64,000 bases of DNA from a virus, in the IMG/VR virus record IMGVR_UViG_3300045988_057044, positions 53,907 to 117,906 of that record; one strand, given 5' to 3'. The notes under the pieces are model-generated. The model made no database searches. It saw nothing but the letters and a program-made list of their open reading frames with translations, and was not told the origin of the DNA. A program made the translations under genes and the position numbers. Of this stretch, positions 48,789-64,000 are shown piece by piece. How positions within the stretch are numbered: position 1 is the stretch's first letter; every line of letters starts with the position of its first letter.

Positions 48789-48791
48789 ATC

Positions 48792-49466: not shown

Positions 49467-49493
49467 AAAAATTAATCTGATTTAATGGTTAAG

Positions 49494-49812: not shown

Positions 49813-49823
49813 GTGTAACTGGA

Positions 49824-50279: not shown

Positions 50280-50442
50280 GCATACCGTTACTTATATGGT
50301 AACGTTCTTTTCTTTCTAATCTAGTGGGATTACCGTTTAGAGTAATCTCACCAGAATATTCATTCTCTTTATCAGGTTTAATTCCCTTTATGTAAATAGA
50401 ACTGCCTGATTCAGCTAAGTAGACCTGTTGTATTACGCTCAT
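50224..50442 (-). CDS. hypothetical protein (72 aa)
   Basis: ORF track. Confidence 0.3.
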   Translation of the reverse strand: MSVIQQVYLAESGSSIYIKGIKPDKENEYSGEITLNGNPTRLERKERYHISNGMLVTDSYHIPMEFIISFLQ

Positions 50443-50864
50443 AGTTCTGGAACATCTGAACGGTCATCATAATAGCCTTCATCCCCAACGAGCTGAGCCA
50501 AGCATCCGTGCATATACGGAACTAATTCCGGTCTTTCTCGATAAGTTCGGAATAAAAGCCAACTCATGCTCGTAGAGTTTCCAGTATGTCCGTTATCAAA
50601 GAACTGAAGTTTGTCCTTAATAGCATCAACTAAGTCGTATAAGCTCTCATATTGCTTCAAGAAGTCTTGATACTGTTCATCACCGAAATCTTGGAAAAAT
50701 TCCGAGAATGAAAGAGCTTGCTTTATACATAACATTTCATACTCAAACAAGTCATCCTCTTCGAAGGAATGGTCGGTTGCAGCTGAGAATAGACGATTAA
50801 ATCGTTCGATTCTGTTTTGAAACTCTACAGGGAGAGTTTCTTTGGTAAGATTTTCGTAATTCAT
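50439..50864 (-). CDS. hypothetical acidic protein (141 aa)
   Basis: ORF track. Confidence 0.4.
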   Translation of the reverse strand: MNYENLTKETLPVEFQNRIERFNRLFSAATDHSFEEDDLFEYEMLCIKQALSFSEFFQDFGDEQYQDFLKQYESLYDLVDAIKDKLQFFDNGHTGNSTSMSWLLFRTYRERPELVPYMHGCLAQLVGDEGYYDDRSDVPEL

Positions 50865-50897
50865 AATCTAAAAATTAAGTATCTAATTAATTACTAG

Positions 50898-50956
50898 TAG
50901 CGGGACTCGACCTTCAGGTTATGAGCCTGACTAGCTACCTCTGCTAACACCCCGCG
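50898..50956 (-). tRNA. tRNA-Met(CAT)-like with deleted T arm (initiator-like 5' end CGCGGGGTG)
   Basis: minus sense CGCGGGG-TG-TTAGC-AGAGGTA-GCTA-G-TCAGG-CTCATAA-CCTGA-AGGTCGAG-TCCCGCT-A; acceptor, D and anticodon arms canonical, only ~3 nt where the 17-nt T arm should be. Confidence 0.4.
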
Positions 50957-50959
50957 ATA

Positions 50960-51139
50960 TTACAAATGTTTTTTAAATATTTCACAATGATTGTATTCAC
51001 TTCCCCAACGTATGGGATATTCTTCTTCCTTGGCTTTCTTATAGCCTTCGGCTTCCTTTTTATCCAGAAATATCTGACACTCAGTTTTATAGTTCTGAGG
51101 CGCATTAGCTGGATGATGATTCACTACGTATACTTTCAT
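50960..51139 (-). CDS. small hypothetical protein (59 aa; MKVYVVNHHPANAPQNYKTECQIFLDKKEAEGYKKAKEEEYPIRWGSEYNHCEIFKKHL)
   Basis: Manual rc translation between two tRNA genes; length multiple of 3, ATG 51137-51139, TAA 50960-50962. Confidence 0.35.
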   Translation of the reverse strand: MKVYVVNHHPANAPQNYKTECQIFLDKKEAEGYKKAKEEEYPIRWGSEYNHCEIFKKHL

Positions 51140-51157
51140 AATTATTTAATTTTGTTG

Positions 51158-51230
51158 TGGACACGCAGGGACTCGAACCCTATCTTCCGGTGTGCAAAAC
51201 CAGCGCTCTAGCCATTTGAGCTAACGGCCC
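51158..51230 (-). tRNA. tRNA-Ala(TGC), acceptor stem weak in inner 3 pairs
   Basis: minus sense GGGCCGT-TA-GCTC-AAATGGCTA-GAGC-G-CTGGT-TTTGCAC-ACCGG-AAGA-TAGGG-TTCGAGT-CCCTG-CGTGTCC-A; G3.U70 present; pairs 5-7 mismatched. Confidence 0.5.
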
Positions 51231-51415
51231 ATGTTTGAGATTTTCTTTTTAATTGGTGACATAACTCATAAATTTCCACTGTTAGGATTCCATAACCTAA
51301 CATCACCAGATAAGTCTTTAATTAGTTATATTCTGGATACATAAGTTTGTAACTATATATCTTTTAACGGCAACCATCCGTTTAACAATTCTCAAGTTCA
51401 GCTTGCCTATTATAA

Positions 51416-51778
51416 CTACGCAGGGACTGGCTTCGACTTATTAGCATAAATGCTAACAAAATGTCCACCACCTTGTTGAGGCGGAAGTATCAAATTTGGA
51501 AAGCGACTACTCCATAGTGCTAATCCAAGAGGAGACGTGCTTGTAAAAAACTCTCCAAGTTCCGATATAGGTTTTTTCAGTTCTCTAAGTTTTTCCGAAA
51601 TTTCCTTATACCTTTTACTCTTTTTATTAATCCCACTTCGCTGTGCCTCTAACTCAGCTATATTATCTAATATAGGTTTGACAATAGACTTGTAGTCTTC
51701 CTGAGTTATTAACAGCTTAACTTGACTTATACCATTTGCATAAGTAAGTTTAAACTTTCCAATAGGTTGTACTATCAT
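51416..51778 (-). CDS. hypothetical protein (120 aa)
   Basis: ORF track. Confidence 0.4.
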   Translation of the reverse strand: MIVQPIGKFKLTYANGISQVKLLITQEDYKSIVKPILDNIAELEAQRSGINKKSKRYKEISEKLRELKKPISELGEFFTSTSPLGLALWSSRFPNLILPPQQGGGHFVSIYANKSKPVPA

Positions 51779-51932
51779 ATCTAATTAATTAAAAGTTGGT
51801 GGATGCTAGCCGTTTCTATTCCACCATTGCGTACTACAGTGCTAGCTACCGTCTAGACGACTCTCTTCCTCACATCGGTCTAGAGTTTGCTGGATTACTT
51901 AGTTAAAAACTAAGGAGGGTTCAGCAAAAAGG

Positions 51933-52017
51933 CGTATGGTGCAGGATTCGAACCTGCGATGGGATTTCTCACGGCGGGTTAACAGCCCGCTGCCGTCGGC
52001 CACTTGGCTAACCATAC
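51933..52017 (-). tRNA. type II (long variable arm, 85 nt) tRNA with anticodon GTT (nominally Asn)
   Basis: minus sense GTATGGT-TA-GCC-AAGTGGCCGAC-GGC-A-GCGGG-CTGTTAA-CCCGC-CGTGAGAAATCCCATC-GCAGG-TTCGAAT-CCTGC-ACCATAC-G; Tyr/Ser-like body, Asn-like anticodon loop. Confidence 0.55.
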
Positions 52018-52259
52018 ATATTATTTCCTCCCAGACATCTGTAAGTACCCCATTGGTACTTACCTTTTAATGATATTTTTACTCTTGTCCTCTGTATGGA
52101 GGAGGTATTGTTCCAGACACTAACCAAGTGTAGTTCTTAGAACTCTGTTCAAAATACCATTTAGCAGCTTTCTTTACAACATTAATTACTTTCTTCATAA
52201 CATTAAAGTTTAAAATTGTTAATAATTAATCTAATAACAGAGCCACAAAAGGAGTTTAG

Positions 52260-52339
52260 TTGCGGAGGTAGGATTCGAACCGTTTATGACGATTTCTAGG
52301 TTATGAGCCTAGCGAGATGACCAACTTCTCTACTCCACG
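52260..52339 (-). tRNA. tRNA-Met(CAT), initiator-like (C1.A72 mismatch), with enlarged/irregular T region
   Basis: minus sense CGTGGAG-TA-GAGA-AGTTGGTCA-TCTC-G-CTAGG-CTCATAA-CCTAG-AAATCGTCATAAACGG-TTCGAAT-CCTAC-CTCCGCA-A; T stem does not form canonically. Confidence 0.45.
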
Positions 52340-52475
52340 ATATTAGTAGCTAATTTACATCCGCTACTCAGGATGCCTTTCACGATAAGGGACGCCCTTC
52401 TAACCGTAGGTGACGACTGGGTGATAACGTAACCAGACACGTTAACTATTGTAGTTAAAAGACTTGCACGTCGAG

Positions 52476-52550
52476 ACTCGGTGGTCAGATTCGAACTGAC
52501 GAATCAGCAGATTTGCAGTCTGAGCCATTAAACCACTCTGGTACACCGAG
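52476..52550 (-). tRNA. tRNA-Cys(GCA)
   Basis: minus sense CTCGGTG...TCAGA-CTGCAAA-TCTGC...GTCAG-TTCGAAT-CTGAC-CACCGAG-T. Confidence 0.7.
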
Positions 52551-52560
52551 GTGACTACTT

Positions 52561-52620
52561 CTCCACCCCGTAAGACTAGTTATTCGGAGATAAGACCAGT
52601 TACAACTTGTAACTGTGGAG
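52561..52620 (-). other. ~60-nt hairpin-rich element (possible tRNA remnant or small RNA)
   Basis: CTCCAC...GTGGAG terminal pairing; perfect 7-bp hairpin CAGTTACA-ACTT-TGTAACTG; no T-loop consensus. Confidence 0.25.
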
Positions 52621-52633
52621 CCTTGTTTCGTCG

Positions 52634-52708
52634 TTCCGATTAAAGGATTTGAACCTCCCACTAATGCTTTATTGGTATGGGCGCTCTACCATACTGAGCT
52701 AAATCGGA
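52634..52708 (-). tRNA. tRNA, anticodon undetermined (canonical acceptor, D and T arms; aberrant 23-nt anticodon region)
   Basis: minus sense TCCGATT-TA-GCTC-AGTATGGTA-GAGC-G-[CCCATACCAATAAAGCATTAGTG]-GGAGG-TTCAAAT-CCTTT-AATCGGA-A; no 5-7-5 anticodon arm can be drawn. Confidence 0.45.
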
Positions 52709-52712
52709 AAAG

Positions 52713-52784
52713 AGTGGATAATGAGAATCGAACTCACATCCTCGGCATGGCAAGCCGATGCACTAACCATTGTGCTATACCCAC
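52713..52784 (-). tRNA. tRNA-Gly(GCC)
   Basis: minus sense GTGGGTA-TA-GCAC-AATGGTTA-GTGC-A-TCGGC-TTGCCAT-GCCGA-GGAT-GTGAG-TTCGATT-CTCAT-TATCCAC-T. Confidence 0.8.
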
Positions 52785-52789
52785 AAATG

Positions 52790-52859
52790 TGCAGGTAGAG
52801 AGACTCTCCCCTCCAGATTGGAAGTCTGGCGTGCTCAATCCATTAACACCACACCTGCA
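52790..52859 (-). tRNA. tRNA-Gly(TCC)-like with T loop reduced to 1 nt
   Basis: minus sense GCAGGTG-TG-GTGT-TAATGGATTGA-GCAC-G-CCAGA-CTTCCAA-TCTGG-AGGG-GAGAG-T-CTCTC-TACCTGC-A; T stem retained, 7-nt T loop missing. Confidence 0.45.
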
Positions 52860-52893
52860 TAATGGAGAGTTTTACGATACTCTCCTAAACGAA

Positions 52894-53238
52894 TTACTCA
52901 GATAACAGCTCCTGCATATCAATCTCGCCAGCTACCTTAGTAATAGCGATTTTGAACGGATTCCCCTTGATTTTGTCAAACAAGTGAGCATCACGAGTTT
53001 CTTTCACCTCGTCAGGGACGTTAAATTTCTTCTTGCCTTTCTCTATGGTTTTCCATGTAACCACCTCGCAGCGAGTTATCTCGTAAACGCTGTCGTTTCG
53101 GTCAACGTAAACCTTGAAAAAGTTCTTTTTGTAGTTGAACTTCTCAACCCTTTTGAAATTCTTGGGATGAGCGTGGAACTTCAAGTCGCATTTTCCATTA
53201 GCTAAGAAAATCAATTCTGCCATAATAATACTCCGCAT
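52894..53238 (-). CDS. hypothetical protein (114 aa)
   Basis: ORF track. Confidence 0.4.
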   Translation of the reverse strand: MRSIIMAELIFLANGKCDLKFHAHPKNFKRVEKFNYKKNFFKVYVDRNDSVYEITRCEVVTWKTIEKGKKKFNVPDEVKETRDAHLFDKIKGNPFKIAITKVAGEIDMQELLSE

Positions 53239-53359
53239 AGTCGGAGATTCAAAGTTAAACTATGTTAATTCCAGTCTTTCGTCTGGCACTCCACCTCGTT
53301 TTAACCAATAGCTACTATTATTCACTATTTGAGCTAAGCTCTAAACTGGGATAAAGGTA

Positions 53360-53635
53360 TTAGTCTATGTAAATAAACGGTTTTCCAAATTCTTCCATGA
53401 AGGACTCAAACCATCCCTCCATTTCTTCGTCACTATCAAAATAGATAGATTCATCATGTCTTTTAGAGAACTCTAAAATGATATGAGGTTTCTGATATAC
53501 TATTCCATCCTTGTAGAAGGCATATCTCTTCTCTAAAGATGAAATCATTTTTTCTTCCGTATAAGTTCCAAAACATGGGTTCCAATAATCTCGATGTATT
53601 TTCCAAAACAAGAATCGTCCACATAATGTACCCAA
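53360..53635 (-). CDS. hypothetical protein (91 aa)
   Basis: ORF track. Confidence 0.35.
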   Translation of the reverse strand: MGTLCGRFLFWKIHRDYWNPCFGTYTEEKMISSLEKRYAFYKDGIVYQKPHIILEFSKRHDESIYFDSDEEMEGWFESFMEEFGKPFIYID

Positions 53636-53675
53636 TCGGGATGCTTTCTAGTTTTAAAAACTAAAACTCTCTTTA

Positions 53676-53978
53676 CTAAACTTCCATTAATATACTTGTC
53701 CATACTTTAATCCCAATATTCTGGGCAGTCATTAATAATCCCTTTTCGCAAAAGCCTTTATCATAGAAAATGCAGGATGAACACGAAAGATTGTCCCTAG
53801 ATTCATATTCTTGAATACCTTCTTGAATATCTCTTTTTGCTTTATATCTATCCTTTCTATTCTCTTTCTTGTATTCATATTGCATCATTCTGCTTCTATA
53901 AGGAGAAGTGCAATTCTTAAGCATCTTTGCGTATTTAGAACTATCAAGGAAGTCCGTAATTGACTCACAGACCTTCAA
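53676..53978 (-). CDS. hypothetical protein (100 aa)
   Basis: ORF track. Confidence 0.35.
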   Translation of the reverse strand: MKVCESITDFLDSSKYAKMLKNCTSPYRSRMMQYEYKKENRKDRYKAKRDIQEGIQEYESRDNLSCSSCIFYDKGFCEKGLLMTAQNIGIKVWTSILMEV

Positions 53979-54121
53979 CGCCTTATTATAGGAACATTAT
54001 ACCTTACATTGGCTTTAATCCCGGCAACAGGTACGTAAAATTTACCGCAAGCGTTGTAAACCTTTTTAGCTCTCGAAATCCACTTTCTTTTAGAAAGTTC
54101 TCTTCTTAATTCTCTATCCAT
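53975..54121 (-). CDS. small basic protein (48 aa; MDRELRRELSKRKWISRAKK...)
   Basis: ORF-track frame 53975..54268 truncated to internal ATG (54119-54121) because its 5' part overlaps tRNA-Cys. Confidence 0.3.
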   Translation of the reverse strand: MDRELRRELSKRKWISRAKKVYNACGKFYVPVAGIKANVRYNVPIIRR

Positions 54122-54141
54122 AAGCAATAAGATTAGTGTAG

Positions 54142-54215
54142 AATCTAGAGTGGGATTCGAACCCACGAAACACGGTTTTGCAGACCGTTCCCTTAGACCG
54201 CTCGGGCATCTAGAC
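54142..54215 (-). tRNA. tRNA-Cys(GCA) (second copy, different body)
   Basis: minus sense GTCTAGA-TG-CCC-GAGCGGTCTAA-GGG-A-ACGGT-CTGCAAA-ACCGT-GTTTC-GTGGG-TTCGAAT-CCCAC-TCTAGAT-T. Confidence 0.7.
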
Positions 54216-54242
54216 ATAAAGGGGAGACTAGCTCCCCAAGTT

Positions 54243-55655
54243 TTATAGTACCAAAGAGTTGTAAGCACCTCTACGATACAGAGACGGTCTACTATTTGGA
54301 TCTTTAATCCAGTAGTAATTGATTTCCTTGCTGTCTTTAGTAACTACGATTCCTAGTTTCTTGTCAATCGCAATAATTTCGTCATCATAGAAGTCATCTC
54401 CAACTGCCAGATTTGCGAACTTAATATCCGAAGATACATAGTAATATGACAGATTGTGGAAATTGTGGCGGCGATATTCATAATACTCGTTAAGAGCTTT
54501 TCTTTCCTCAACAGTACAGTTATCCTCATCGTCTACAATAGGCTTCGGCATCGGATTGTTGAATCTCTCAACAGCTTTAGAGAACTCTTCAATAGAGAAT
54601 TTATTCTTATCAGCAGAAATCTCACCAGCATATGCATAACCTCTAATGCAGGAATAGTCATACTCATTAGTTACTACGTTGAAGAAGCCTTTAGCTCTTC
54701 TCAATCCTTCTATACCGTGAATATTGACCTCATTAACTATAGTTTTGAGAATATCAATAGTAGATATAGTCAAAGAATCAATGAAATCAAGCAAATCTTG
54801 ACGAGCTTCCGGCACTTGAAGTGCGTCGTCCAGATATTCGTTCACAACCTTCAAATCCAAGTTGCCAAATTCCTTGACATAACGGATTCTAGACGGACGT
54901 CCTACCATATTCTCATTGATGGTCATAGCATTAGTAGTAAGCAGGAAAACCTTGCGATACTTAGAGTTGTAAACACCGTCCATGATTTGCAAGATAGTAG
55001 AATCCGATTCACTGAAATTCTTTTCAAATTCATCCAAGAACAGAATGCAATCTCCTTCAATACCAGAAAGGAACTCAATCATAGATTGATTATGGTCTCC
55101 CATATCCTTTACGATAATGATGGGCAGATTTAGCTTGTTAGCCAGTTCCTTAGCAGTAACAGTCTTTCCAGTGCCCTTTGTACCAGTAAGCATAATTCCG
55201 AGATTGCCTTCTGTAGCGTGATACGTCTTAATTACATGGTCAATAAACTCGTTCTGCAAACCATACATTTTGTACGGGAATACAAACTTATCCGCATATC
55301 TGTCTAGGTGATAACCTGTCATTGTCAGACAAATACTGTAGATTCCAACTGGGAGAGACTGCTCAACGCTATAGCCTGAGCTTACCTGGGTATATGTAGA
55401 CCCAGAACACATCCAAACTTTGTTCATTTTTTCTTTTTCTAAGTTACTTAAAACAGATGCCTGTTTGAGACATCCTACTAATTGATTAGCTATAGAATCT
55501 ATAGCTTCTTTGTTATCAGTTTCCTCTGAGAGTCTTTTTACAAACCACTCTTTAGAACGGGCAACTATTTGCTCATCAGTCTCATTTTCAGAGATTGTTT
55601 CAGCAAATTCATGGTAGATACTAGTCAGCTTACCTTCTAATTCTTCTACGGTCAT
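54243..55655 (-). CDS. AAA+ ATPase
   Basis: Walker A IMLTGTKGTGKTVTAKEL, Walker B CILFLDEFEK. Confidence 0.65.
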   Translation of the reverse strand: MTVEELEGKLTSIYHEFAETISENETDEQIVARSKEWFVKRLSEETDNKEAIDSIANQLVGCLKQASVLSNLEKEKMNKVWMCSGSTYTQVSSGYSVEQSLPVGIYSICLTMTGYHLDRYADKFVFPYKMYGLQNEFIDHVIKTYHATEGNLGIMLTGTKGTGKTVTAKELANKLNLPIIIVKDMGDHNQSMIEFLSGIEGDCILFLDEFEKNFSESDSTILQIMDGVYNSKYRKVFLLTTNAMTINENMVGRPSRIRYVKEFGNLDLKVVNEYLDDALQVPEARQDLLDFIDSLTISTIDILKTIVNEVNIHGIEGLRRAKGFFNVVTNEYDYSCIRGYAYAGEISADKNKFSIEEFSKAVERFNNPMPKPIVDDEDNCTVEERKALNEYYEYRRHNFHNLSYYYVSSDIKFANLAVGDDFYDDEIIAIDKKLGIVVTKDSKEINYYWIKDPNSRPSLYRRGAYNSLVL

Positions 55656-55810
55656 TAGTAATCCTCCTCGTTATGTTCATTAGTTATGAGAGAACGAGCC
55701 TTTTCCATACCAGATTCGTAAGACTCTGTAACAAACACTATGGCAGTTTTTAGGTCCATGGAATTGCCATTGTCTACCATTTCCTGAATAATTTCACTTA
55801 ACTCTTTCAT
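55655..55810 (-). CDS. small hypothetical protein (~51 aa) translationally coupled (TAATG) to the AAA+ gene
   Basis: Manual rc translation MKELSEIIQEMVDNGNSMDLKTAIVFVTESYESGMEKARSLITNEHNEEDY; stop overlaps downstream ATG. Confidence 0.3.
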   Translation of the reverse strand: MKELSEIIQEMVDNGNSMDLKTAIVFVTESYESGMEKARSLITNEHNEEDY

Positions 55811-55832
55811 ATTACTTAATAAATAAAAGTTG

Positions 55833-55907
55833 TAGGGTAGGAGGGACTCGAACCCTCACGGCACATGGGCCTAAACCATGCCTGTCTACCAATTCCAGCA
55901 CTACCCC
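55833..55907 (-). tRNA. tRNA with anticodon TAG (Leu, reads CUA) on a class-I-length (75 nt) body
   Basis: minus sense GGGGTAG-TG-CTG-GAATTGGTAGA-CAG-G-CATGG-TTTAGGC-CCATG-TGCCGT-GAGGG-TTCGAGT-CCCTC-CTACCCT-A; lacks the long variable arm of bacterial tRNA-Leu. Confidence 0.6.
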
Positions 55908-55916
55908 TTGCTCTAG

Positions 55917-56348
55917 TTAATTGTTATTATAATTGTGAAGTTGCATATGACAGTTAGAGCAAACTATCATTAGATTATCCAACTTATTATTATAATGGTT
56001 ATTATCCTTGTGATGTAATTCTAAAGGAATTTTCATTCCCTCTGATAATCCACAACGCTCACACTTATCTTCTTTATATCCATCCTCTATTAATCTTATC
56101 CTCTTTCTAGAATTAGAAACATTAGGATTTTCTATCAGGTCTAAAGCATCTTTCCTCTTTGGGTCTAGTCTTTTTCCCTTAGAACCTTGATTCCCCTTAT
56201 ACTCTATTCCCATCTTAATATAATAGGATTTTAAAGTATCAACCTTGCAATTTAGTCTTCTAGCTATTTCAGCATTAGACTCATTTTCTGAAATCCATTG
56301 TCGGATTTCCTATTCTCTTTCTAAAATGTCGATTCTTGCCTTTGCCAT
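55917..56348 (-). CDS. HNH endonuclease with N-terminal HTH domain, interrupted by an in-frame TAG (56310-56312) 12 codons after the ATG
   Basis: ORF-track ORF 55917..56213 (CERCG...HHKDNNHYNNKLDNLMIVCSNCH = HNH). Its frame continues upstream through EIRQWISENESNAEIARRLNCKVDTLKSYYIK (sigma-region-4/LuxR-type HTH) with no start codon until MAKARIDILERE-TAG. Confidence 0.5.
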
Positions 56349-56383
56349 ATTAAATACTATAAATTCCGCCACTACCCCAACTG

Positions 56384-56845
56384 TTAGGTTGCTTTTATTT
56401 CTTTAGCAACCTTAACCATTTCGTTATATTTCTCTACTACCTTATTAAAGTCTTCCTCAGATATTTGAAAAACTTTGTGAGAGTTTCCATACCACTCTTC
56501 TTGACCAGGAAGCCACGTTATATTAATATACCTCTTCTTTTCTAATTCCATATGTACCTTAGATGAATCAATATAAACTGAATAGGCATCCTCTTCGATT
56601 CTACTACTTCGTGGATCTGTTGGGTCGGATGTAAGTCTGAAAAACATTGTTGACATACCATTGAAGTCTATCTTGAAACACTTTCCTATATAGCTTTTAA
56701 GTAGTGCTTTATGTCTATTATCGCTATCTACCTTCTCTTGGTGTCTCTTCCGTTCTTCTTCCTTAACATATTCATTATACTCTCTTAGAGTGCTGTCTGG
56801 ATGCTTGTCCAGATATTCTTCTATAGGACTCTTTCTTCCCCACAT
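56384..56845 (-). CDS. hypothetical protein (153 aa)
   Basis: ORF track. Confidence 0.4.
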   Translation of the reverse strand: MWGRKSPIEEYLDKHPDSTLREYNEYVKEEERKRHQEKVDSDNRHKALLKSYIGKCFKIDFNGMSTMFFRLTSDPTDPRSSRIEEDAYSVYIDSSKVHMELEKKRYINITWLPGQEEWYGNSHKVFQISEEDFNKVVEKYNEMVKVAKEIKAT

Positions 56846-56846
56846 A

Positions 56847-57257
56847 TTATACTACTTTAAGATGGCAATAAATACTAAATTCTGGAATTGGAATCCAAGT
56901 TGCAATACCATTGCTATCTACTGGTTTACCCTTGTTGATTGTACAAATAGTGATATGAGGTTTAGCATTTGCACAAGGCAGATATTGGTCTCCCAATTCT
57001 ACTCCAAAAGCTATTGCTTTCTCAGAAATCCCTATTTTGTTTACAATTAATCGAAAATTACCATCTATACGATATTGTAGGTCATTAGCCATCTTTTCTT
57101 CATGTTGATTTTTATGGAGAAGAGTGCAATGATCTAAATAAATAGTACTTCCTCTTTGGAACACCAGATTGCAAATAATGGGATTTCCAATGATAACTTG
57201 CATAAGTTTGTTTCTAGTTGGTTCATCTAAGAACAATCCAAAATACTGATAATTCAT
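56847..57257 (-). CDS. hypothetical protein (136 aa)
   Basis: ORF track. Confidence 0.4.
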   Translation of the reverse strand: MNYQYFGLFLDEPTRNKLMQVIIGNPIICNLVFQRGSTIYLDHCTLLHKNQHEEKMANDLQYRIDGNFRLIVNKIGISEKAIAFGVELGDQYLPCANAKPHITICTINKGKPVDSNGIATWIPIPEFSIYCHLKVV

Positions 57258-57395
57258 AAGTTTTATTTTTTAATTATTTGAAATCAGACCTCATATCCGT
57301 TCCATGGAGCGCAATATAAGCCGACTATACTCGTGGCAACCTATATTACTTGATATGTCTTTTCGGTTGTACTACTTTCTCCGTATCTGATTATG

Positions 57396-57464
57396 TGAAC
57401 CTATTGGGACTTGAACCCAAATCTAGCCAACGCGTCTAGACCTTTATTCCAATTAGGTAGGCTC
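57396..57464 (-). tRNA. tRNA-like sequence, undetermined (good acceptor and T arm, 4 nt short, no canonical D/anticodon arms)
   Basis: minus sense GAGCCTA...GGTCTAGACGCGTTGGCTAGA...TTGGG-TTCAAGT-CCCAA-TAGGTTC-A; interior is palindrome-rich (GTCTAGAC, ACGCGT). Confidence 0.3.
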
Positions 57465-57479
57465 AAGTGTGGACCTAGA

Positions 57480-57554
57480 GGGCTTTGAACCCCCGACCTT
57501 CTGATTATGAGTCAGCTGCTCTGACCGGACTGAGCTATAGGTCCTAAATATTAT
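57480..57554 (-). tRNA. tRNA-Met or tRNA-Ile2(CAT)
   Basis: minus sense GGACCTA-TA-GCTC-AGTCCGGTCA-GAGC-A-GCTGA-CTCATAA-TCAGA-AGGTC-GGGGG-TTCAAAG-CCCTC-TAGGTCC-A. Confidence 0.75.
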
Positions 57555-57904
57555 TCGTATGCACTTATTGATTTGCATTCAAATATTACTGTCTTCCCTA
57601 GAACATCACTTGGTTTTATATTAAACTTAGCAAATTCCAGCATCAACTTTTCCATTTCTTCTACAGAATGTGTTTCTCCTATGATACTTTTTCTATCTAT
57701 AGAAGTTTGAAAATTGGCAAACAATTCTGTAACTAAACAACTATTACTCTCATTTCTTACTATTATTTGTTCTTCTGGTTTTAACTTTTCTGCTGCATCA
57801 GAGTGTAACTTACCACACCAACAAACTCCGAATGAATTTTCCCGGACTTTACATTTACCTTTGTCACAAAACTTGACAACCTTTCTATAATCTTCTGGCT
57901 TCAT
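57551..57904 (-). CDS. hypothetical protein (117 aa)
   Basis: ORF track. Confidence 0.4.
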   Translation of the reverse strand: MKPEDYRKVVKFCDKGKCKVRENSFGVCWCGKLHSDAAEKLKPEEQIIVRNESNSCLVTELFANFQTSIDRKSIIGETHSVEEMEKLMLEFAKFNIKPSDVLGKTVIFECKSISAYE

Positions 57905-58329
57905 AATTTAGAACGTATATCGTTAATTAACGCTTGAATCATATGAGTTTGTTCTCTCCATTTGTAATGAAATTCAAGACTGTTAGACTCTTCTTCGGTT
58001 AATGGAATATGAAATAATATTTTATGGTATATATTCTTAAACCATTTCCTCTCAAGCTTCCTACTTTCCTTAGTTCCTACCTCATATCCTCTCTTAGATT
58101 TACGGTTCTTAGAACGACCACGTGCCCAACCAAATTGTTTGCCATCATTCACCCATTTCCAGTCGGCTCTGGCTTCTTTTTGCCTAAGCCTCTTGTTAAT
58201 GATATTAATCTTTTCTATCTCTTCCATATTTGTTAATTTTGTTGGGCTACTAGGACTCGAACCTAGACTGACAGAATCAAAATCTGTAGTGCTAACCATT
58301 ACACCCAATACTAACTTAACTATTCTCAC
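57901..58329 (-). CDS. hypothetical basic protein (142 aa)
   Basis: ORF track. Confidence 0.4.
   Translation of the reverse strand: MRIVKLVLGVMVSTTDFDSVSLGSSPSSPTKLTNMEEIEKINIINKRLRQKEARADWKWVNDGKQFGWARGRSKNRKSKRGYEVGTKESRKLERKWFKNIYHKILFHIPLTEEESNSLEFHYKWREQTHMIQALINDIRSKL
58242..58313 (-). tRNA. tRNA-Gln(TTG)-like; acceptor strands do not pair (possible chimera/pseudogene)
   Basis: minus sense TAGTATT-GG-GTGT-AATGGTTA-GCAC-T-ACAGA-TTTTGAT-TCTGT-CAGT-CTAGG-TTCGAGT-CCTAG-TAGCCCA-A. Confidence 0.45.
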
Positions 58330-58370
58330 GAACCATTAAGTCCACATTTACCATGAAAACACACAATGTG

Positions 58371-58447
58371 TGGGACGAGGCAGAATCGAACTGCCGCTAT
58401 CGTCCCGGATTTTCAGTCCAGCGCTCTACCAACTGAGCTATCGTCCC
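58371..58447 (-). tRNA. tRNA-Phe(GAA) with 9-nt variable loop
   Basis: minus sense GGGACGA-TA-GCTC-AGTTGGTA-GAGC-G-CTGGA-CTGAAAA-TCCGG-GACGATAGC-GGCAG-TTCGATT-CTGCC-TCGTCCC-A; variable region repeats the 5' motif GGGACGATAGC. Confidence 0.7.
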
Positions 58448-58698
58448 ATGTAATCAGATACTCAAATCTAATACATTTTTGTTCCACCAGTTAGTTAAAT
58501 CTTGTAAAGAAAACTTAAATACAGTTTCAAAGTCTTCTACAGAAACAACTTCCTCTCCTATCTCTCCAGCCCACATGCTTTTGTCTCTTCTAAGGAAATG
58601 GGTTCTTCCATAAGCCATGTATCATTCAGTAACATATCCATGAATGGCTTATGTAGTGATGCAAATATTCTAATCTTCCATAACAATGTTTATTTAAG

Positions 58699-58783
58699 CG
58701 GAGGCAGCTGGATTCGAACCAGCGGGACCCGAAGGCCCTCCGTCTTAGCAGGACGGTGGTTTAAGCCACTCACCCATACCTCC
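58699..58783 (-). tRNA. tRNA-Ser(GCT)
   Basis: minus sense GGAGGTA-TG-GGT-GAGTGGCTTAA-ACC-A-CCGTC-CTGCTAA-GACGG-long variable arm-GCTGG-TTCGAAT-CCAGC-TGCCTCC-G. Confidence 0.8.
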
Positions 58784-58845
58784 AGATTGCAAAGGGGCTT
58801 TTGTTATACTTTACTATTGAAATTGTAAAGCCCCTTCGCTGTGAA

Positions 58846-60819
58846 TTACTTCACTTCTTCAAACTCAGTTGTTTCAGCTTTCTTCTCCTCCAACTCTTTC
58901 TTGCCGAGAACACTTTTCAGTGTATCAGCGAAAGGTATAGAGCGAAGCAAGTCGAACGCAGGATTCAAGTTCTCAGCAGTTTTAGCCATGAAGTTACCAG
59001 CGGTATTCTCGTTACCATAAACAGTAACCTGTCCAAGGTGAACGTGTTCAAACATCTGAGCAGATGCTTCTGCAATACCTGTCAACTGGTCAACTGTCTT
59101 GTACTGAACCACCATTTCCGGAGTCAAGCCAGATTCAATCATCTTCTGGACTGCCAGAGCAGGAGCCATTTCAATAGCCTGGACTTTATCAGCCTCAGCC
59201 ATCAAAGACGCTCTCTTACCCTCAGCTTCAGCAAGCAGTTTCTTTCTTGTACCTTCAGCTTCAGCTTCTAGCTGCAACTTTGTAGCATTTGCTTTAGCTT
59301 CTGCTTCTTTCAGAATTTCAGCAGCCTTAGCTTCTGCTTCAAGTACGGCTTTTTGCTTAACAGCTTCTGCCTCAATTGTGATACGTTCCTTCTCCTTTTG
59401 AGCGGGAACAATCGTCTCTGCATGAAGCTTAGCTTCCATAGCCAATGCAGCTGCTTCGTTTACTTCCAGTTGCTTTTCTTGCTTAGTTTTCTCGATAGTC
59501 ATTTGAGCTTCTACCTTAGAAGTTCCTGCTACCTTTTCAGCTTCAGCCTTAGCTTTCTCGGCTTCTCCCTTAGCTTTAGAGACTTCAATCGTGGCATTTT
59601 GTTCTGCCACTCCTGCAATCTTATCAGCTTCGGCTGCCTTTACACGCTTGTCTGACTCATACTTAGCAACTGCAGCTTCCTGTTCGTTAATTGCCTTTTG
59701 CGTCTCAGCTTCCTGTTTTTGCTTAGCCTGAGCAATACGAGTTTGTTTCTCTGCTTCTGCTTCTGCTTTCTTAGAGTCAGCTTCTGCTTTAGCCTTGGCT
59801 ACATTAGCCTCAGCTAGTGATTCAGACTCTGCTCTATTAGAATCGGCTTCTGCTTGAGCTTTGGCTATAGCTGAAATTTTCTCAGCTTCTGCTTTAGCTT
59901 TCTCCGATTCTGCTGCAGTATTAGCTTTAGCAATATTGGCAGCTTGCTCAGCTTTCTGATTAGCAATACCTGATTGCTTATTCTTCTCAGCTTCTGCAAG
60001 TTTGATTTCCTTCTCCTGGTTAATCTCTGCCACACGAACCTCCTGCTCTTGTCTAGTCTGAGCAACAGTAGTTTCACGCTCTTTCTCAGCGTCTGCTACA
60101 GCAATTTCACGTTGCTTGTTGGTTTCTGCAATCTGAATATCTCCTTTCTTTTTCTCTTCTGCAATGTCAGCCTGTGCTTGAGCAAGAGCTTTAGTTGCAG
60201 CTTTCTGACCTAGATTCTTGATATAGTTTGCATCATCCGAAATATCAGCATTGTTAATGTTGATAATACTGAAACCTACCTTATTCAACTCGGTCTCAAT
60301 ATTCTCCTTAGCTTTGCCGATAAACTTGATTCTATCAGCGTTAATTTCCTCAATCGTCATCGTAGCCATCAAGCTTCTCACTTCACCAATGAGAATATCC
60401 TTGATTTGGTCTGAGATTTCAGAAGTTTTAGCTGTTAAGAATCTACTTGCAGCATTTTGCATTAATGTTTGAGTAGTCCCAATACCAGTGGTCAATGTTA
60501 CAGGAATAGTTACCTTAATCATTTGACTGGAAACACCAGTAACATTTACTTGAATTTGGATAGGTTTCAAAGACATTTTAGCCCAGTCTTGAATTACTGG
60601 CATTACGAATGTACCTCCACCATGAATGATTTTGGACGGCAGAATAACTTCCTCCGACTTTCCAGTCTTCTCGTTAACTACCTTTTTCTTACCAGCTTTA
60701 CCAAACACAACCAAGATTTCATCACTGGCACACTTACGATACCGTGACAAAAGTCCAATAAAGGTTAAAACTACCAGCAATACAATAACACCTGCTACAA
60801 TAAGAGTTTCTGTTGTCAT
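58846..60819 (-). CDS. flotillin-like SPFH/band-7 protein with long Ala/Glu/Lys-rich coiled coil
   Basis: N-terminal TM helix (LIVAGVIVLLVVLTFIGLL), SPFH-like region, then ~300 aa of AEAEK/KAEAE repeats typical of flotillins (FloT/YqiK family). Confidence 0.65.
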   Translation of the reverse strand: MTTETLIVAGVIVLLVVLTFIGLLSRYRKCASDEILVVFGKAGKKKVVNEKTGKSEEVILPSKIIHGGGTFVMPVIQDWAKMSLKPIQIQVNVTGVSSQMIKVTIPVTLTTGIGTTQTLMQNAASRFLTAKTSEISDQIKDILIGEVRSLMATMTIEEINADRIKFIGKAKENIETELNKVGFSIININNADISDDANYIKNLGQKAATKALAQAQADIAEEKKKGDIQIAETNKQREIAVADAEKERETTVAQTRQEQEVRVAEINQEKEIKLAEAEKNKQSGIANQKAEQAANIAKANTAAESEKAKAEAEKISAIAKAQAEADSNRAESESLAEANVAKAKAEADSKKAEAEAEKQTRIAQAKQKQEAETQKAINEQEAAVAKYESDKRVKAAEADKIAGVAEQNATIEVSKAKGEAEKAKAEAEKVAGTSKVEAQMTIEKTKQEKQLEVNEAAALAMEAKLHAETIVPAQKEKERITIEAEAVKQKAVLEAEAKAAEILKEAEAKANATKLQLEAEAEGTRKKLLAEAEGKRASLMAEADKVQAIEMAPALAVQKMIESGLTPEMVVQYKTVDQLTGIAEASAQMFEHVHLGQVTVYGNENTAGNFMAKTAENLNPAFDLLRSIPFADTLKSVLGKKELEEKKAETTEFEEVK

Positions 60820-60835
60820 CTTTTAAAAATTCTTT

Positions 60836-61354
60836 TTAGTTAAAATAATACTTTCCATTCTCAAATTTAGAAATTACCACACGAGTACCAACCATATATC
60901 CCATTTTTGGGACTTCTGGATAGGCTACAATTTCCTCAGAACCTCCATTTACTTCAATAGTAATGAAGAAATGGTTTTCACAAGGAACTGTGATAATTCC
61001 AACCCTTCCAATCAAGGCTTCACCCTCTTCTGGAATAACTTGATGCTGGAGTTTTAAACAGAGTTTATATAAGTAGTAAAGTATAACCACGAAAAGAATA
61101 CCGCATACTAATGCGATTAGATAATCATACCATTCTACAGAATGGGATACGGATTGCTTAACACAAAGCCATCCACTAGCCCCCATTATAAAATGGATTA
61201 ATCCCTTAAATGAGACAATATCACTCACGTTCATATCTAGTTCTCCATCTAAATCAACATCTAAGTCAGTGTCTCCGCCAAACCAAGATAAGATGAATTG
61301 AACTAGAAAAATGCCATATGAAATGGCTGCCAAAAGATAATACACTTCACTCAT
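60836..61354 (-). CDS. NfeD-like membrane protein (flotillin partner)
   Basis: Hydrophobic N-terminal helices plus C-terminal beta-rich OB-like segment (GRVGIITV...GYMVGTRVVISKFENG); located immediately upstream of the flotillin gene as in bacterial nfeD-floT operons. Confidence 0.5.
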   Translation of the reverse strand: MSEVYYLLAAISYGIFLVQFILSWFGGDTDLDVDLDGELDMNVSDIVSFKGLIHFIMGASGWLCVKQSVSHSVEWYDYLIALVCGILFVVILYYLYKLCLKLQHQVIPEEGEALIGRVGIITVPCENHFFITIEVNGGSEEIVAYPEVPKMGYMVGTRVVISKFENGKYYFN

Positions 61355-61575
61355 CTCTTACAATATTTACAATCTGGGTCATGGACTACTCCTACAACTT
61401 GGTATTGTCCCTCGGTGAATTTAATGTACTGATGATTCTTGTATTTAAAGTGAACTGCGGTATCAAATGGAATAATTCCATCTCTGGTATTCCTAGTAGC
61501 TTCTAGTTCACTAGTTGGACCTGAACAACTAAATAGTAGCACAAGTCCTAATGAGATAATTGTTAGCTTTTTCAT
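61351..61575 (-). CDS. small lipoprotein (74 aa)
   Basis: MKKLTIISLGLVLLFSCSG = signal peptide + lipobox. Confidence 0.45.
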   Translation of the reverse strand: MKKLTIISLGLVLLFSCSGPTSELEATRNTRDGIIPFDTAVHFKYKNHQYIKFTEGQYQVVGVVHDPDCKYCKR

Positions 61576-61583
61576 AATTCTTT

Positions 61584-62000
61584 TTAATCTTTGTTTTTAT
61601 TTTTAAAGTGTATATCTCTATGACAATTTGCACACAGAACTATACATTTCTTTAATTCTTCCTCCATCTTTTTTCTAGAACCATTGTGAGCTAAAGTAGC
61701 AATACATGATTCCTTTTCATCCGGATTTTCATGGTGAAAGTCCAAGACCCACCATCTGTCTTCTCCACATATAGAACATTTCAAAGAAGATTTTATCTCT
61801 CTAATATAATCTTCGCATTCTTTCGAACTTTCCCTAGCTTTTGCTAGATAGGTCTCCTTGTTCTTCTGATAGTGAAGTTTATTGTAGGCAGATTTACACT
61901 CTTTGCATTCTGCCTGCAATCCGTCTTTCTTAGCCTTATTCTTTCCAAACTCAGAAATAGGCTTTTCCTTTTTGCATTTACTACAAATTTTTGTTTCCAT
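61584..62000 (-). CDS. HNH endonuclease (Zn-finger type); ORF-track N-terminal extension to 62159 is translated tRNA
   Basis: METKICSKCKK...CKECK...CSICGEDRWWVLDFHHENPDEK...CANCHRDIH; upstream 50 codons of the track ORF overlap tRNA-Ser(TGA). Confidence 0.6.
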   Translation of the reverse strand: METKICSKCKKEKPISEFGKNKAKKDGLQAECKECKSAYNKLHYQKNKETYLAKARESSKECEDYIREIKSSLKCSICGEDRWWVLDFHHENPDEKESCIATLAHNGSRKKMEEELKKCIVLCANCHRDIHFKNKNKD

Positions 62001-62068
62001 AGCACGCCCGCTAGGAATAATAGTTTTGGAGACTATCCTCTTAAACCACTTGAGTACGGACGTATTTG

Positions 62069-62157
62069 CGGAAGGACAGGGATTCGAACCCTGGGGACGT
62101 GTTACCGCCCGACGGTTTTCAAGACCGTTGCAATAAGCCTGACTCTGCCACCCTTCC
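62069..62157 (-). tRNA. tRNA-Ser(TGA)
   Basis: minus sense GGAAGGG-TG-GCA-...-TGC-A-ACGGT-CTTGAAA-ACCGT-long variable arm-CAGGG-TTCGAAT-CCCTG-TCCTTCC-G. Confidence 0.8.
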
Positions 62158-62181
62158 AAAAGCTAGTCTTATGACTAGCCA
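62158..62181 (-). terminator. intrinsic terminator between 62270..62719 and tRNA-Ser
   Basis: perfect hairpin GCTAGTC-ATAA-GACTAGC (minus sense) followed by TTTT. Confidence 0.5.
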
Positions 62182-62269
62182 AAAATCATACCAAGAAGCA
62201 ATATTACACAGAATATAGCTAGAATACACCAGCCTATAGCCTGGATTGCTCCTCAGCCAAATATACAAA

Positions 62270-62719
62270 TCATTGAAGATATAAAGCTCCTCCTACTACA
62301 CTTATCCAACCTCCAGCATCGTTTTTGGATAGTCTACCTCTACCAGTTAATAGCATAAATACTGATATTCCTAATAGTATGGTGCCTACTACAATTCCGG
62401 CTATCTCCTTATAGAGGAGTTTCCACACTACGATAGTTATTGCTGTTTGTCCTAGGTTGGATTCTGCTATTCTTATGGCTGAATCTTCAACTGCTTTTAA
62501 GGTTTCATTGACTGCTACGCCAATTTCCTTACCAAGATTTGCATACTCAGAAACTTCCTTGATTTCACCCTTTATAGCTTTCTCTGTTGTTATCTTCTCA
62601 ATTTGAGTTCTAGTATCGCTTGGCAACTTATCATAGTCTTCTTGTGATATAGTTATCTGAGAAAAAGCTGCTACGCTCATCCAGAGCATAGCAAGCATAA
62701 ATACAAGGAACTTTTTCAT
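62270..62719 (-). CDS. secreted/membrane-anchored protein (149 aa)
   Basis: Signal peptide MKKFLVFMLAMLWMSVAAFSQ and C-terminal TM helix. Confidence 0.45.
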   Translation of the reverse strand: MKKFLVFMLAMLWMSVAAFSQITISQEDYDKLPSDTRTQIEKITTEKAIKGEIKEVSEYANLGKEIGVAVNETLKAVEDSAIRIAESNLGQTAITIVVWKLLYKEIAGIVVGTILLGISVFMLLTGRGRLSKNDAGGWISVVGGALYLQ

Positions 62720-63279
62720 TAGTCAAGCCATTCAAATTCTTTACCTTCAAAATGTCTTGCAAAACAAGCATCAAACACTAGCTTTCCAAACTGAGTTGAC
62801 ACATATTTTGCAATCTCTTCAGATTTGCACGCTAGCATCCCGACACCGGAAGCGGCACCGCCGACGTCAGTGCAAGAATGGAAAGAGCCGAGACCCGCAT
62901 CGCCGCCAGAATACGCGCCGCCGCCCACCAACGCGAATTTCTCGCCCTGATAACGGAAGTGACCAATGACCTCTGCATCCTTCGGAACTGATTTCATTCT
63001 AAAGAAGCGAACCCAGGGATACCATATAGTACCAGTCAACAGATTGAACTTGTGACCTTCATTTAGCGCATCCAAGACTGTCTGCAACTTAGCTAGAGAA
63101 TTTACAGATCTATTGTAGTAAATAGTATCTCTAGTAACACACCCTAGATAGTTTACAGCATCCTCATAGGTTCTTATCCGTCCCATAATGTTTTCTGGAA
63201 CGATTTCAACATTGCCAGTTTCGGCATTATAGATGGGTTTATAACCATCTGGACATTCAATTTCAATTGTCTTTTTCAT
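62719..63279 (-). CDS. hypothetical protein (186 aa)
   Basis: ORF track. Confidence 0.45.
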   Translation of the reverse strand: MKKTIEIECPDGYKPIYNAETGNVEIVPENIMGRIRTYEDAVNYLGCVTRDTIYYNRSVNSLAKLQTVLDALNEGHKFNLLTGTIWYPWVRFFRMKSVPKDAEVIGHFRYQGEKFALVGGGAYSGGDAGLGSFHSCTDVGGAASGVGMLACKSEEIAKYVSTQFGKLVFDACFARHFEGKEFEWLD

Positions 63280-63309
63280 TCGTTATAATATTTAATAAAA
63301 CATGATTAG

Positions 63310-63377
63310 GGTGTTATAGCGAACCGCTGACCTCTACAGCCACAATGTAGCGTTCTGCCAACTGAACTAATAACACC
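63310..63377 (-). tRNA. tRNA-His(GTG)-like with encoded G-1 and T arm reduced to a 4-bp/3-nt mini-hairpin
   Basis: minus sense G(-1)-GTGTTAT-TA-GTTC-AGTTGGCA-GAAC-G-CTACA-TTGTGGC-TGTAG-AGGTC-AGCG-GTT-CGCT-ATAACAC-C. Confidence 0.45.
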
Positions 63378-63383
63378 ATCAAA

Positions 63384-63848
63384 TTATTTAAGTAATGGCA
63401 ATAACTTTTTACCAAGAATCTTTACTGCTTTCTGTGCATCAGCTACAGTTCTGAAATAAACAACACCTGGATACTTTACATTTTGATGCATGGCGACGTA
63501 CACTCCTTTTATATCAGTTTCCGTCTTTCCAGATAGAGAAGAACCCTTTCCAAGGAAATAGCCAATATTACATTCTGTTTTGATCCATCCTTTATTTAGA
63601 TAGTTAGCAACTATTTGTAAACTAGCTAGAGAACTGAGTTGTTCTGTCATGCTTGGAGGACATACTAATGTATTCCAAAAACCATAATCTTCTTCAGACT
63701 CTACTATCTCTTTAAAGGAAGGAATTAGCATTTCCTCACTAAATGCAGTAAGAGCTAATTTCTTCAAGTCTTCATTACCGCTTTCATACCATTCGCGTGC
63801 CTGCTCTAAAGTTACCTCAAGATAGGCTTTTGTCTTAATTCTATTCAT
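63384..63848 (-). CDS. hypothetical protein (154 aa)
   Basis: ORF track. Confidence 0.45.
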   Translation of the reverse strand: MNRIKTKAYLEVTLEQAREWYESGNEDLKKLALTAFSEEMLIPSFKEIVESEEDYGFWNTLVCPPSMTEQLSSLASLQIVANYLNKGWIKTECNIGYFLGKGSSLSGKTETDIKGVYVAMHQNVKYPGVVYFRTVADAQKAVKILGKKLLPLLK

Positions 63849-63850
63849 TT

Positions 63851-64000
63851 TTGTTTATTAGTTTTTAATGGACACCAATCCGGAATTAATACCCTTTCGT
63901 AAGGTCTTAACATTCCCTCAATTAGTTTATTCCCTACTTCTTTACAAAGCGCTTTTTCATCATTGAACCAGTCATCAGGGTCAGGAGCGATTCTACAATG
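63851..64000 (-). CDS. hypothetical protein, partial (start lies beyond window end)
   Basis: Open minus-strand frame running into the window edge, same strand as all neighbours; weak. Confidence 0.25.

Follow-up and report, generated by a model that had tools for sequence, protein, structure and literature searches.

T-arm-less tRNA-like loci of a crAss-like gut phage are very probably recent, strain-specific pseudogenes formed by short direct-repeat deletions

The window analysed here, a 64,000-nucleotide stretch of viral DNA, belongs to a common crAss-like gut phage with a genome of roughly 185-190 kb, for which the only GenBank phage relative is MT837398.1 (7 kb, unannotated). Its accessory region (43000..64000, minus strand) carries tRNA genes and small ORFs. 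Standard ARAGORN identifies 14 tRNAs in the window, none of them at four minus-strand loci resembling tRNA-Met(CAT), tRNA-Gly(TCC), tRNA-His(GTG) and tRNA-Trp(CCA). All four display a 7-bp acceptor stem, a D arm and an anticodon arm with a 7-nt loop, while the canonical T arm (5-bp stem, 7-nt GTTCRANYC-type loop) is absent from each. Minus-strand reading confirms the abnormal T arm and intact remaining arms that a sequence-only reading had described for Met-CAT, Gly-TCC and His-GTG; all three of its loci are real, but the T-arm deletion in tRNA-Trp and four other damaged tRNA genes in the array had been missed.

The initiator-like tRNA-Met(CAT) remnant, defined by sequence, alignment and ARAGORN -mt, occupies 50898..50956 and reads, from 50956 to 50898 on the minus strand, CGCGGGG TG TTAGC AGAGGTA GCTAG T CAGGC TCATAA CCTGA AGGTC GAG TCCCGCT A. 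Its T arm is reduced to GAG (3 nt), the 14 missing nucleotides comprising 8 nt between TCGAG repeats and 6 nt between TCCC repeats. The tRNA-Gly(TCC) remnant (52790..52858, minus strand; sequence and comparison with relatives) begins at 52858, one nucleotide away from the 52859 first given for a locus and structure that otherwise hold. Its 3' part reads AGGG GAGAG T CTCTC TACCTGC A, with the T arm shortened from GAGAG TTCGAGT CTCTC to GAGAG T CTCTC through loss of 6 T-loop nucleotides between GAGT direct repeats. The tRNA-His(GTG) remnant (63310..63377, minus strand; sequence, Rfam and relatives) carries G-1 and GTGTTAT at its 5' end and AGGTC AGCG GTT CGCT ATAACAC C at its 3' end, the loss of 6 nt (CGAGTC) from the T loop and 3' stem leaving a 4-bp stem with a 3-nt loop and CG as the junction repeat. 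In the tRNA-Trp(CCA) remnant (62003..62063, or 62002-62063 by ARAGORN; minus strand; alignment and ARAGORN mitochondrial models), 13 nt (TCCTAGGTTCGAA, the 5' T stem and loop) are lost between TCCTAG direct repeats, and 4 nt are left. Alignment to relatives demonstrates that all four loci equal the intact alleles outside the deleted stretches.

Two checks proposed in the sequence-only reading agree with it. An Infernal search with Rfam RF00005 finds a canonical fold at none of its three loci, matching the His-like locus alone (43.3 bits, with a collapsed T loop), while the Met-like and Gly-like loci stay without a match even when hits up to E<=10 are admitted. The mitochondrial armless models of ARAGORN accept all three, along with the Trp locus and a tRNA-Gln remnant. 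The intact alleles of relatives score 64.2 (His), 55.1 (Gly-TCC), 41.4 (Met) and 60.3 bits (Trp, L034 7231-7305) in Rfam. Judged from sequence, the truncated loci are clearly tRNA-derived and no chance matches. The minimum-energy structure of the truncated Met and His forms is not a cloverleaf, and these altered folds, together with the missing T loop and elbow, suggest that tRNA function would be lost.

Canonical 17-nt T arms are present at the corresponding loci in more than 50 related contigs, including relatives at only ~80% DNA identity. The full arm is found at the Gly locus in 16/16 IMG/VR relatives and 10/10 further public contigs, at the His locus in 38/39, and at the Met locus in 12. 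The 12 Met relatives align with the arm GAGGG TTCGAGT CCCTC and the 38 His relatives with AGCGG TTCRART CCGCT; one of these 38, L040, has its own 7-nt deletion (GGTCAGC) just upstream, affecting the 5' T stem and variable loop. Compensatory T-stem pairs occur among relatives at both Met (GAGGG/CCCTC, GTCGG/CCGAC, GTGGG/CCCAC) and His (AGCGG/CCGCT versus ACTGG/CCAGT), and the genes are intact in the distant relatives L001, L014, L015 and L060. This comparison shows the deleted state to be derived. At the Met locus, L012 carries only the 8-nt deletion, L004 has it too and has also lost 2 nt and gained 1 nt in the acceptor stem, and the window combines the 8-nt loss with an additional 6-nt deletion, a series that reads as stepwise decay. 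IMG/VR has 0 matches to the truncated junctions of Gly, Trp and His; in the metagenome collection, the His junction in its truncated form likewise has 0, versus 40 for the intact His allele. T-arm deletions are found elsewhere in other strains, in Asp, Pro, Tyr and Ser tRNA genes.

The sequence-only reading had held that full T arms in relatives would imply an assembly or transcription error. The arms are there, but an assembly error does not follow, since the deletions recur in independently made assemblies. Five public records contain sequence that matches the window at 99.96-100% identity and has the truncations of Gly, Met, Gln, His and Trp, namely ENA ERZ1310010 (SPAdes), ERZ28579017, ERZ916318 (MEGAHIT of ERR321365), NCBI GCA_900521865.1 and Logan ERR209356; these cover three or more assemblers and two or more sequencing runs, and represent one near-clonal strain only. 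The odd size spectrum, with a 6-9-nt peak and few 1-5-nt events, and the division of strains into those with no deletions and those with many, unnatural at first sight, would suit a sequencing or assembly artefact behind which the true phage tRNAs are intact. Yet several assemblers and runs return the same sequence, some deletions are common to different strains in a mosaic pattern (seven in L011, three in L012), and the replication-gene regions of deletion-rich strains hold very few deletions, most of them 6 nt and therefore in frame, a mark of purifying selection, whereas an artefact would ignore reading frames. On these grounds an artefact was rejected as very improbable.

The same region holds further lesions, all on the minus strand. 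The tRNA-Gln(TTG) remnant (58242..58307, ARAGORN 58241-58305; alignment and Rfam) has lost 6 nt (GGCTAT) from the 5' acceptor strand and positions 8-9, scoring 40.5 bits versus 65-66 for the intact allele. An odd 'Tyr(ATA)'-like gene (52634..52708; alignment) is without 7 nt (GAGGTCA) of the variable loop, an allele common to L011, L012, L219 and L221. By alignment and Rfam, tRNA-Leu(TAG) (55832..55907) lacks 7 nt (CGCAAGG) of its long variable arm (52.9 versus 60.5 bits intact), and tRNA-Leu(TAA) (43448..43533) has its 3' acceptor strand swapped for unrelated sequence (26 bits, below threshold, versus 56.9 intact). Gene calls also reveal two broken small ORFs at 53360..54110, hit by four deletions (three of 7 nt, one of 9 nt) at ~53988, 53730, 53618 and 53581; relatives have them intact (142 and 119 aa called), while the window strain gives 48, 82 and 62 aa. 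Altogether, 35 indel clusters are private to the window, 32 of them within 43-64 kb; about 25 are deletions of at least 5 nt, mostly 6-9 nt, in 21 kb, and no private insertion of at least 5 nt occurs among the 35. Microhomology at deletion junctions averages 3.5 nt versus 0.8 at random positions, with 59% of junctions having at least 3 nt versus 7.7% at random.

A rival reading is that the truncated genes work in translation as minimal T-armless tRNAs, or as decoys or baits for anticodon nucleases of the host or tRNA-targeting defence systems. The untouched acceptor, D and anticodon arms and the acceptance of all four loci by the armless models fit such a role, as do the repeated T-arm deletions in other strains. 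Enzymes of the RNA-repair type are also present in the phage, namely an RNA ligase and the product of a tRNA_lig_CPD-like ORF, making a tRNA-directed conflict with the host plausible. Nevertheless, the truncations are confined to one near-clonal strain, while relatives keep their T arms through compensatory changes, and the four architectures differ, with loss of the loop only, the loop and part of the 3' stem, the 5' stem and loop, or the whole arm. In the same strain, ORFs are frameshifted, other tRNAs have lesions of the acceptor or variable arm, and the Met locus is still decaying. Moreover, the T arm and elbow are features on which the EF-Tu, RNase P and CCA-adding enzyme of bacteria depend. 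The likeness to the T-armless tRNAs of nematode and arachnid mitochondria lies in the intact acceptor, D and anticodon arms and in acceptance by the ARAGORN mitochondrial models, with 8-9 nt replacing the variable loop/T arm in the Met and Trp remnants, similar in size to the mitochondrial TV-replacement loop. The mitochondrial forms, however, show conservation between species and have evolved together with specialised EF-Tu and CCA-adding enzymes (PMC1636415, PMC4013460, PMC12013499), and those of nematodes work only with dedicated EF-Tu variants (PMC1636415, PMC4013460), whereas the phage forms are limited to a single strain and lack a uniform replacement loop. No adapted factor for armless tRNAs was seen in the 64-kb window, and no EF-Tu-like gene among the ORFs scanned in these 64 kb of the ~185-kb genome. 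A functional role is accordingly rated highly unlikely, and it is just as doubtful that the genes are still transcribed into T-armless RNAs useful to this strain as decoys or minimal adaptors; if they were, the repeated T-arm deletions across strains (Asp, Pro, Tyr, Ser, His) would reflect selection and not accident.

The T-arm-less loci are instead very probably recent tRNA pseudogenes of one strain, arising from short direct-repeat deletions in a dispensable region. They are most likely dead tRNA genes because the deletions are recent, limited to one strain and part of a scatter that also breaks neighbouring genes. The sequence-only reading had considered the losses unlikely to be random decay and possibly functional, as minimal tRNAs, decoys or enzyme substrates; nothing speaks for function, with conservation and a common architecture both lacking and the Met locus decaying stepwise. 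Recent deletions, which it had listed last and as a surprising coincidence, are supported; the coincidence dissolves because, with about 25 private deletions of 6-9 nt spread over 21 kb, several are expected to fall in tRNA genes. A counterpoint to the pseudogene reading is that in the Gly and His remnants the acceptor stem is complete and a mini T hairpin of 4-5 bp persists.

Under the proposed mechanism, DNA between two nearby short direct repeats would be removed, mostly 6-9 nt per event, most simply by replication slippage or microhomology-mediated misalignment. The deletions built up in the dispensable tRNA and small-ORF region of the strain, striking four T arms (Met, Gly, His, Trp) and other parts of three tRNA genes (Gln, Leu-TAG, Tyr-like) and frameshifting ORFs. 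The 6-9-nt size peak could arise from loops too large for host mismatch repair, and the deletion load from a mutator episode or weak selection. The lacI and phage T4/T7 deletion spectra are the classic cases of replication slippage between short direct repeats; here, too, one repeat copy and the intervening bases are lost and junction microhomology is far above chance, but the size range is very narrow (6-9 nt), the burden sharply strain-dependent and the events concentrated in one genome region. Pseudogenes in phage tRNA clusters likewise bear derived, lineage-specific lesions in genes intact in close relatives, lie in a fast-evolving dispensable tRNA block and escape standard tRNA finders. 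The present case differs from them in affecting several genes of one strain by narrow 6-14-nt microhomology deletions, four of which fall in the T arm.

Across the deletion-rich strains, tRNA genes account for 19/93 deletions versus 8.8% of the sequence (2.3x, p=4e-4), and about half of these (roughly 9-11/19 versus ~28% expected) overlap the T arm, a borderline share. The intuition of the sequence-only reading that the losses are non-random is borne out to this extent, but not its functional interpretation. Strains rich in such deletions are in the minority, the others having none. Short direct-repeat density in tRNAs or T arms does not account for the excess, and hairpin-promoted slippage found no support as a general cause, non-tRNA deletion sites being no more structured than random sites. 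With neither repeat density nor hairpin stability explaining the tRNA excess, pure neutral slippage is incomplete and needs to be supplemented, either by selection that is weaker on tRNAs than on ORFs or by a tRNA-specific effect.

Preferential inactivation of tRNA genes, T arms especially, by selection or a tRNA-specific mutational process would account for the over-representation, the T-arm overlap and the failure of repeats and hairpins to explain them; examples would be the selective loss of tRNAs that are costly or defence-triggering in a new host, and transcription-associated instability as the mutational process. This reading is nonetheless improbable, as the excess is modest, as if ORF deletions were purged ~2x as efficiently as tRNA ones, 74/93 deletions lie outside tRNA genes, and the T-arm share is only borderline. 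Restriction-like motif loss was rejected, the deleted sequences having no common motif and GAGTC persisting in the Gly remnant. A mutator DNA polymerase was also rejected, no polymerase allele being common to the deletion-rich strains, and no SNP allele in the 64-kb window marks them. In the DNA polymerase, four or five substitutions are private to strain 061913, and the window has a 2-aa deletion also found in four other contigs. More speculatively, and with odds still well against it, a distinct, strain-specific process might act in crAss-like phages and produce microhomology deletions of 6-9 nt in bursts, favouring tRNA genes.

T-armless phage tRNAs would be remarkable, and reading these loci as strain-specific pseudogenes closes off an attractive but misleading trail. 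Before an unusual tRNA-like gene from a metagenomic phage genome is taken for new biology, it should be set beside its counterparts in related phages. The region cleanly illustrates how microhomology deletions wear down the tRNA array of a phage in nature, a case that could inform the turnover speed and dispensability of phage tRNA sets.

Three tRNA-like genes on the minus strand of the window lack a normal T arm, in agreement with the sequence-only reading: an initiator-like tRNA-Met (50956..50898), holding GAG only in place of the T arm, a tRNA-Gly(TCC) (52858..52790) with the T arm GAGAG-T-CTCTC, and a tRNA-His(GTG) (63377..63310), with G-1 present and the T arm AGCG-GTT-CGCT. The minus strand carries all genes examined, the entire tRNA array (43.4-63.4 kb) among them, and the window is AT-rich (35-40% GC). 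Standard ARAGORN called 14 tRNAs in the window and none of these three loci, while Rfam RF00005 matched the His-like locus at 43.3 bits with a collapsed T loop and gave no match at the Met-like and Gly-like loci even at E≤10. The ARAGORN mitochondrial armless models, a check proposed earlier, called all three, along with Trp and Gln remnants. The missing T arms and the agreeing tool results confirm the observation; the earlier description holds for the Gly architecture but not its start coordinate (1-nt offset), and its list of loci, correct for the three named, missed a T-arm deletion in a tRNA-Trp gene.

Alignment to relatives, also proposed earlier, revealed full T arms elsewhere and mapped the exact deletions. 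The Gly-TCC T arm is GAGAG TTCGAGT CTCTC in 16/16 relative loci and full in 10/10 further ENA and Logan contigs. The His arm is AGCGG TTCRART CCGCT in 38 of 39 relative loci, the sole exception, L040, having lost a different 7 nt just upstream, from the variable loop and the 5' T stem, and the Met arm is full at 12 relative loci. Between distant relatives the T stems vary by paired changes (GAGGG/CCCTC, GTCGG/CCGAC and GTGGG/CCCAC in Met; AGCGG/CCGCT and ACTGG/CCAGT in His), indicating that the T arm is under selection in the family. Compared with relatives, the window has lost 6 nt between GAGT repeats in Gly-TCC, 6 nt (CGAGTC) in His, and 14 nt in two steps in Met. The 8-nt Met step, between TCGAG repeats, stands alone in the related contig L012, with no further step, and is accompanied in L004 by the loss of 2 more nt and a 1-nt insertion; the second step, added in the window, removes 6 nt between TCCC repeats. 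The Met locus is thus a case of stepwise decay of a gene already broken.

Gene-by-gene comparison against clean relatives exposed the fourth T-arm deletion, in tRNA-Trp(CCA) (62063..62003, minus strand), where 13 nt (5' T stem and loop) are lost between TCCTAG repeats. Also lost are 6 nt of the 5' acceptor strand of tRNA-Gln, 7 nt of the variable arm of tRNA-Leu(TAG), 7 nt of a Tyr-like gene, and the 3' acceptor strand of tRNA-Leu(TAA). Because of these lesions, Rfam scores drop from 64.2 bits in intact genes to 43.3 in the window for His, from 65-66 to 40.5 for Gln and from 56.9 to 26 for Leu-TAA, with no window match for Trp, Gly-TCC and Met (intact 60.3, 55.1 and 41.4, respectively). Eleven other window tRNA genes are identical or near-identical to those of relatives.

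Relatives carry a tmRNA (RF00023, 63.6 bits) followed by tRNA-Ile(GAT) (11573-12214 of the related contig L010), both absent from the window strain; at 49702-50227, 487 nt stand in place of about 1.7 kb with these two genes, and a 3' fragment of a second tRNA-Asp (49702-49740) remains after the replacement. Odd tRNA-like genes at 52634-52708, 51931-52017, 52259-52339 and 51158-51230 are kept across strains: a 'Tyr(ATA)' gene whose anticodon loop spans about 15 nt, a tRNA-Asn(GTT) of 87 nt that has a long variable arm, a tRNA-Met of 81 nt, and an Ala(TGC)-like gene that has G3:U70 yet three acceptor-stem mismatches.

Recent deletion had earlier been ranked last among the explanations, as a surprising coincidence. 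Comparison over 8-64 kb, 1-8 kb being covered by no fetched relative, identified 35 indel clusters private to the window against all close relatives, 32 of them in 43-64 kb and three in 8-42 kb. About 25 of these clusters are deletions of 5 nt or more, the usual sizes being 6, 7 and 9 nt, and no private insertion of at least 5 nt was found in the window against close relatives. Each private deletion takes out one copy of a short near-tandem repeat (such as CGTAGT/CGTAGT, AATAAGG/AATAAGG and GGTGTGTTA/GGTGTGGTA), with a mean junction microhomology of 3.5 nt, versus 0.8 nt at random positions. Several 7-nt deletions frameshift ORFs intact in relatives, and genes of 142 and 119 aa in relatives are called as 48-, 82- and 62-aa fragments in the window strain. 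The deletions are not tRNA-specific, and the supposed coincidence of several tRNA hits is explained by the high local deletion load, the roughly 25 private deletions of at least 5 nt accounting for them. The sole private deletions of that size in the replication-gene part of the window lie at 10814 and 25212, one of 8 nt, inside a perfect TGATATTC tandem repeat, and one of 6 nt.

Most strains have zero private deletions of at least 5 nt, though 50-130 private SNPs, while a deletion-rich minority (the window, contig 061913 and five others) shows 0.13-0.67 deletions for each private SNP and a common 6-9-nt size spectrum. These microhomology deletions cluster in the tRNA and small-ORF region, and a few strains carry dozens; loci tied to the uneven burden are window 43000-64000 and, among relatives, L011, L057, L028, L030, L035, L040 and L055. 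In deletion-rich strains, 7-nt deletions are common in the accessory region, and replication-gene regions have very few deletions, mostly of 6 nt and hence in frame, a scarcity that indicates purifying selection on real mutations. The tRNA genes of these strains take 19 of 93 deletions against 8.8% expected (2.3-fold, p=4e-4), and Asp, Pro, Tyr and Ser genes of other deletion-rich strains carry independent T-loop deletions; by our count 9-11 of the 19 distinct tRNA events overlap the T arm, a share that is only borderline. Selection weaker on tRNAs than on ORFs would account for the tRNA excess. Repeat density and hairpin stability, also considered, do not account for it.

Neither any polymerase allele nor any SNP of the window sets the deletion-rich strains apart. 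The window DNA polymerase (3211-5394) is without E250 and H251 of the common allele, as in four other contigs, and contig 061913, the most deletion-rich strain, has four or five private DNA polymerase substitutions. Mismatch repair, as Parker and Marinus reportedly found in 1992, corrects slippage loops only up to about 4 nt, and the paucity of 1-5-nt events is consistent with slippage loops escaping repair above that size.

Carriers were sought by the exact sequence of proteins bearing window-private deletions. The His, Trp, Gly, Met and Gln truncations are present in contigs that match the window at 99.96-100% identity: ENA ERZ1310010 (SPAdes, 117,775 bp), ERZ28579017 (183,563-bp scaffold) and ERZ916318 (MEGAHIT of ERR321365), NCBI GCA_900521865.1, and Logan ERR209356. 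Recurrence of the same truncations across these contigs implies that the deletions are present in the reads. All carriers represent one near-clonal strain and may stem from a single cohort. In IMG/VR the truncated Gly, Trp and His junctions had 0 matches, and the truncated His junction had 0 in the metagenome collection, against 40 for the intact His allele there. Some non-tRNA deletions are common to the window and L011 (seven) or L012 (three) in a mosaic pattern, indicating that deletion alleles are inherited and recombining.

A non-random, possibly functional loss of the T arms had earlier been favoured. The predicted minimum-energy fold of truncated Gly retains three hairpins and has a 3-nt T loop, and those of truncated Met and His are not cloverleaves. 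T-armless tRNAs are known to function only in nematode and arachnid mitochondria, alongside EF-Tu and CCA-adding enzymes that co-evolved with them (PMC1636415, PMC4013460, PMC12013499). Neither was seen in the window. With full arms kept in relatives and lesions that are strain-specific and not limited to tRNAs, a functional role is very unlikely, and the loci are very probably tRNA pseudogenes that microhomology deletions produced recently in this one strain.

Among GenBank phages the one relative is MT837398.1 (L001; unannotated, 7 kb, 79% identity), which has a full-length Gly-TCC gene and the Met T arm GTCGG TTCGAAT CCGAC. With neighbouring ORFs as anchors, IMG/VR yielded dozens of same-group contigs (95-192 kb). 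The group is very common, with 3786 blocks of a public assembly collection indexed for one neighbouring protein. The phage DNA polymerase shares 45-52% identity with those of the crAss-like phages IAS virus, cr111_1 and PhiCrAssBcn, and genome size, tRNA block and replication block are consistent with what PMC12386605 and PMC7886860 describe for the large 'zeta' crAss-like phages. A relative's tRNA with a CTA anticodon, of amber-suppressor type (L031, 916-986), hints at stop-codon recoding in the group, as reported for zeta crAss-like phages. The window encodes an RNA ligase (8937-10304), a small tRNA_lig_CPD-like protein (56847-57257), an ATP-dependent DNA ligase (12576-13775), a nicotinamide phosphoribosyltransferase (36745-38295) and an anaerobic ribonucleotide reductase (18062-20233), and the presence of RNA-repair-type genes beside the tRNA array suggests a conflict with host defences that cleave tRNAs.
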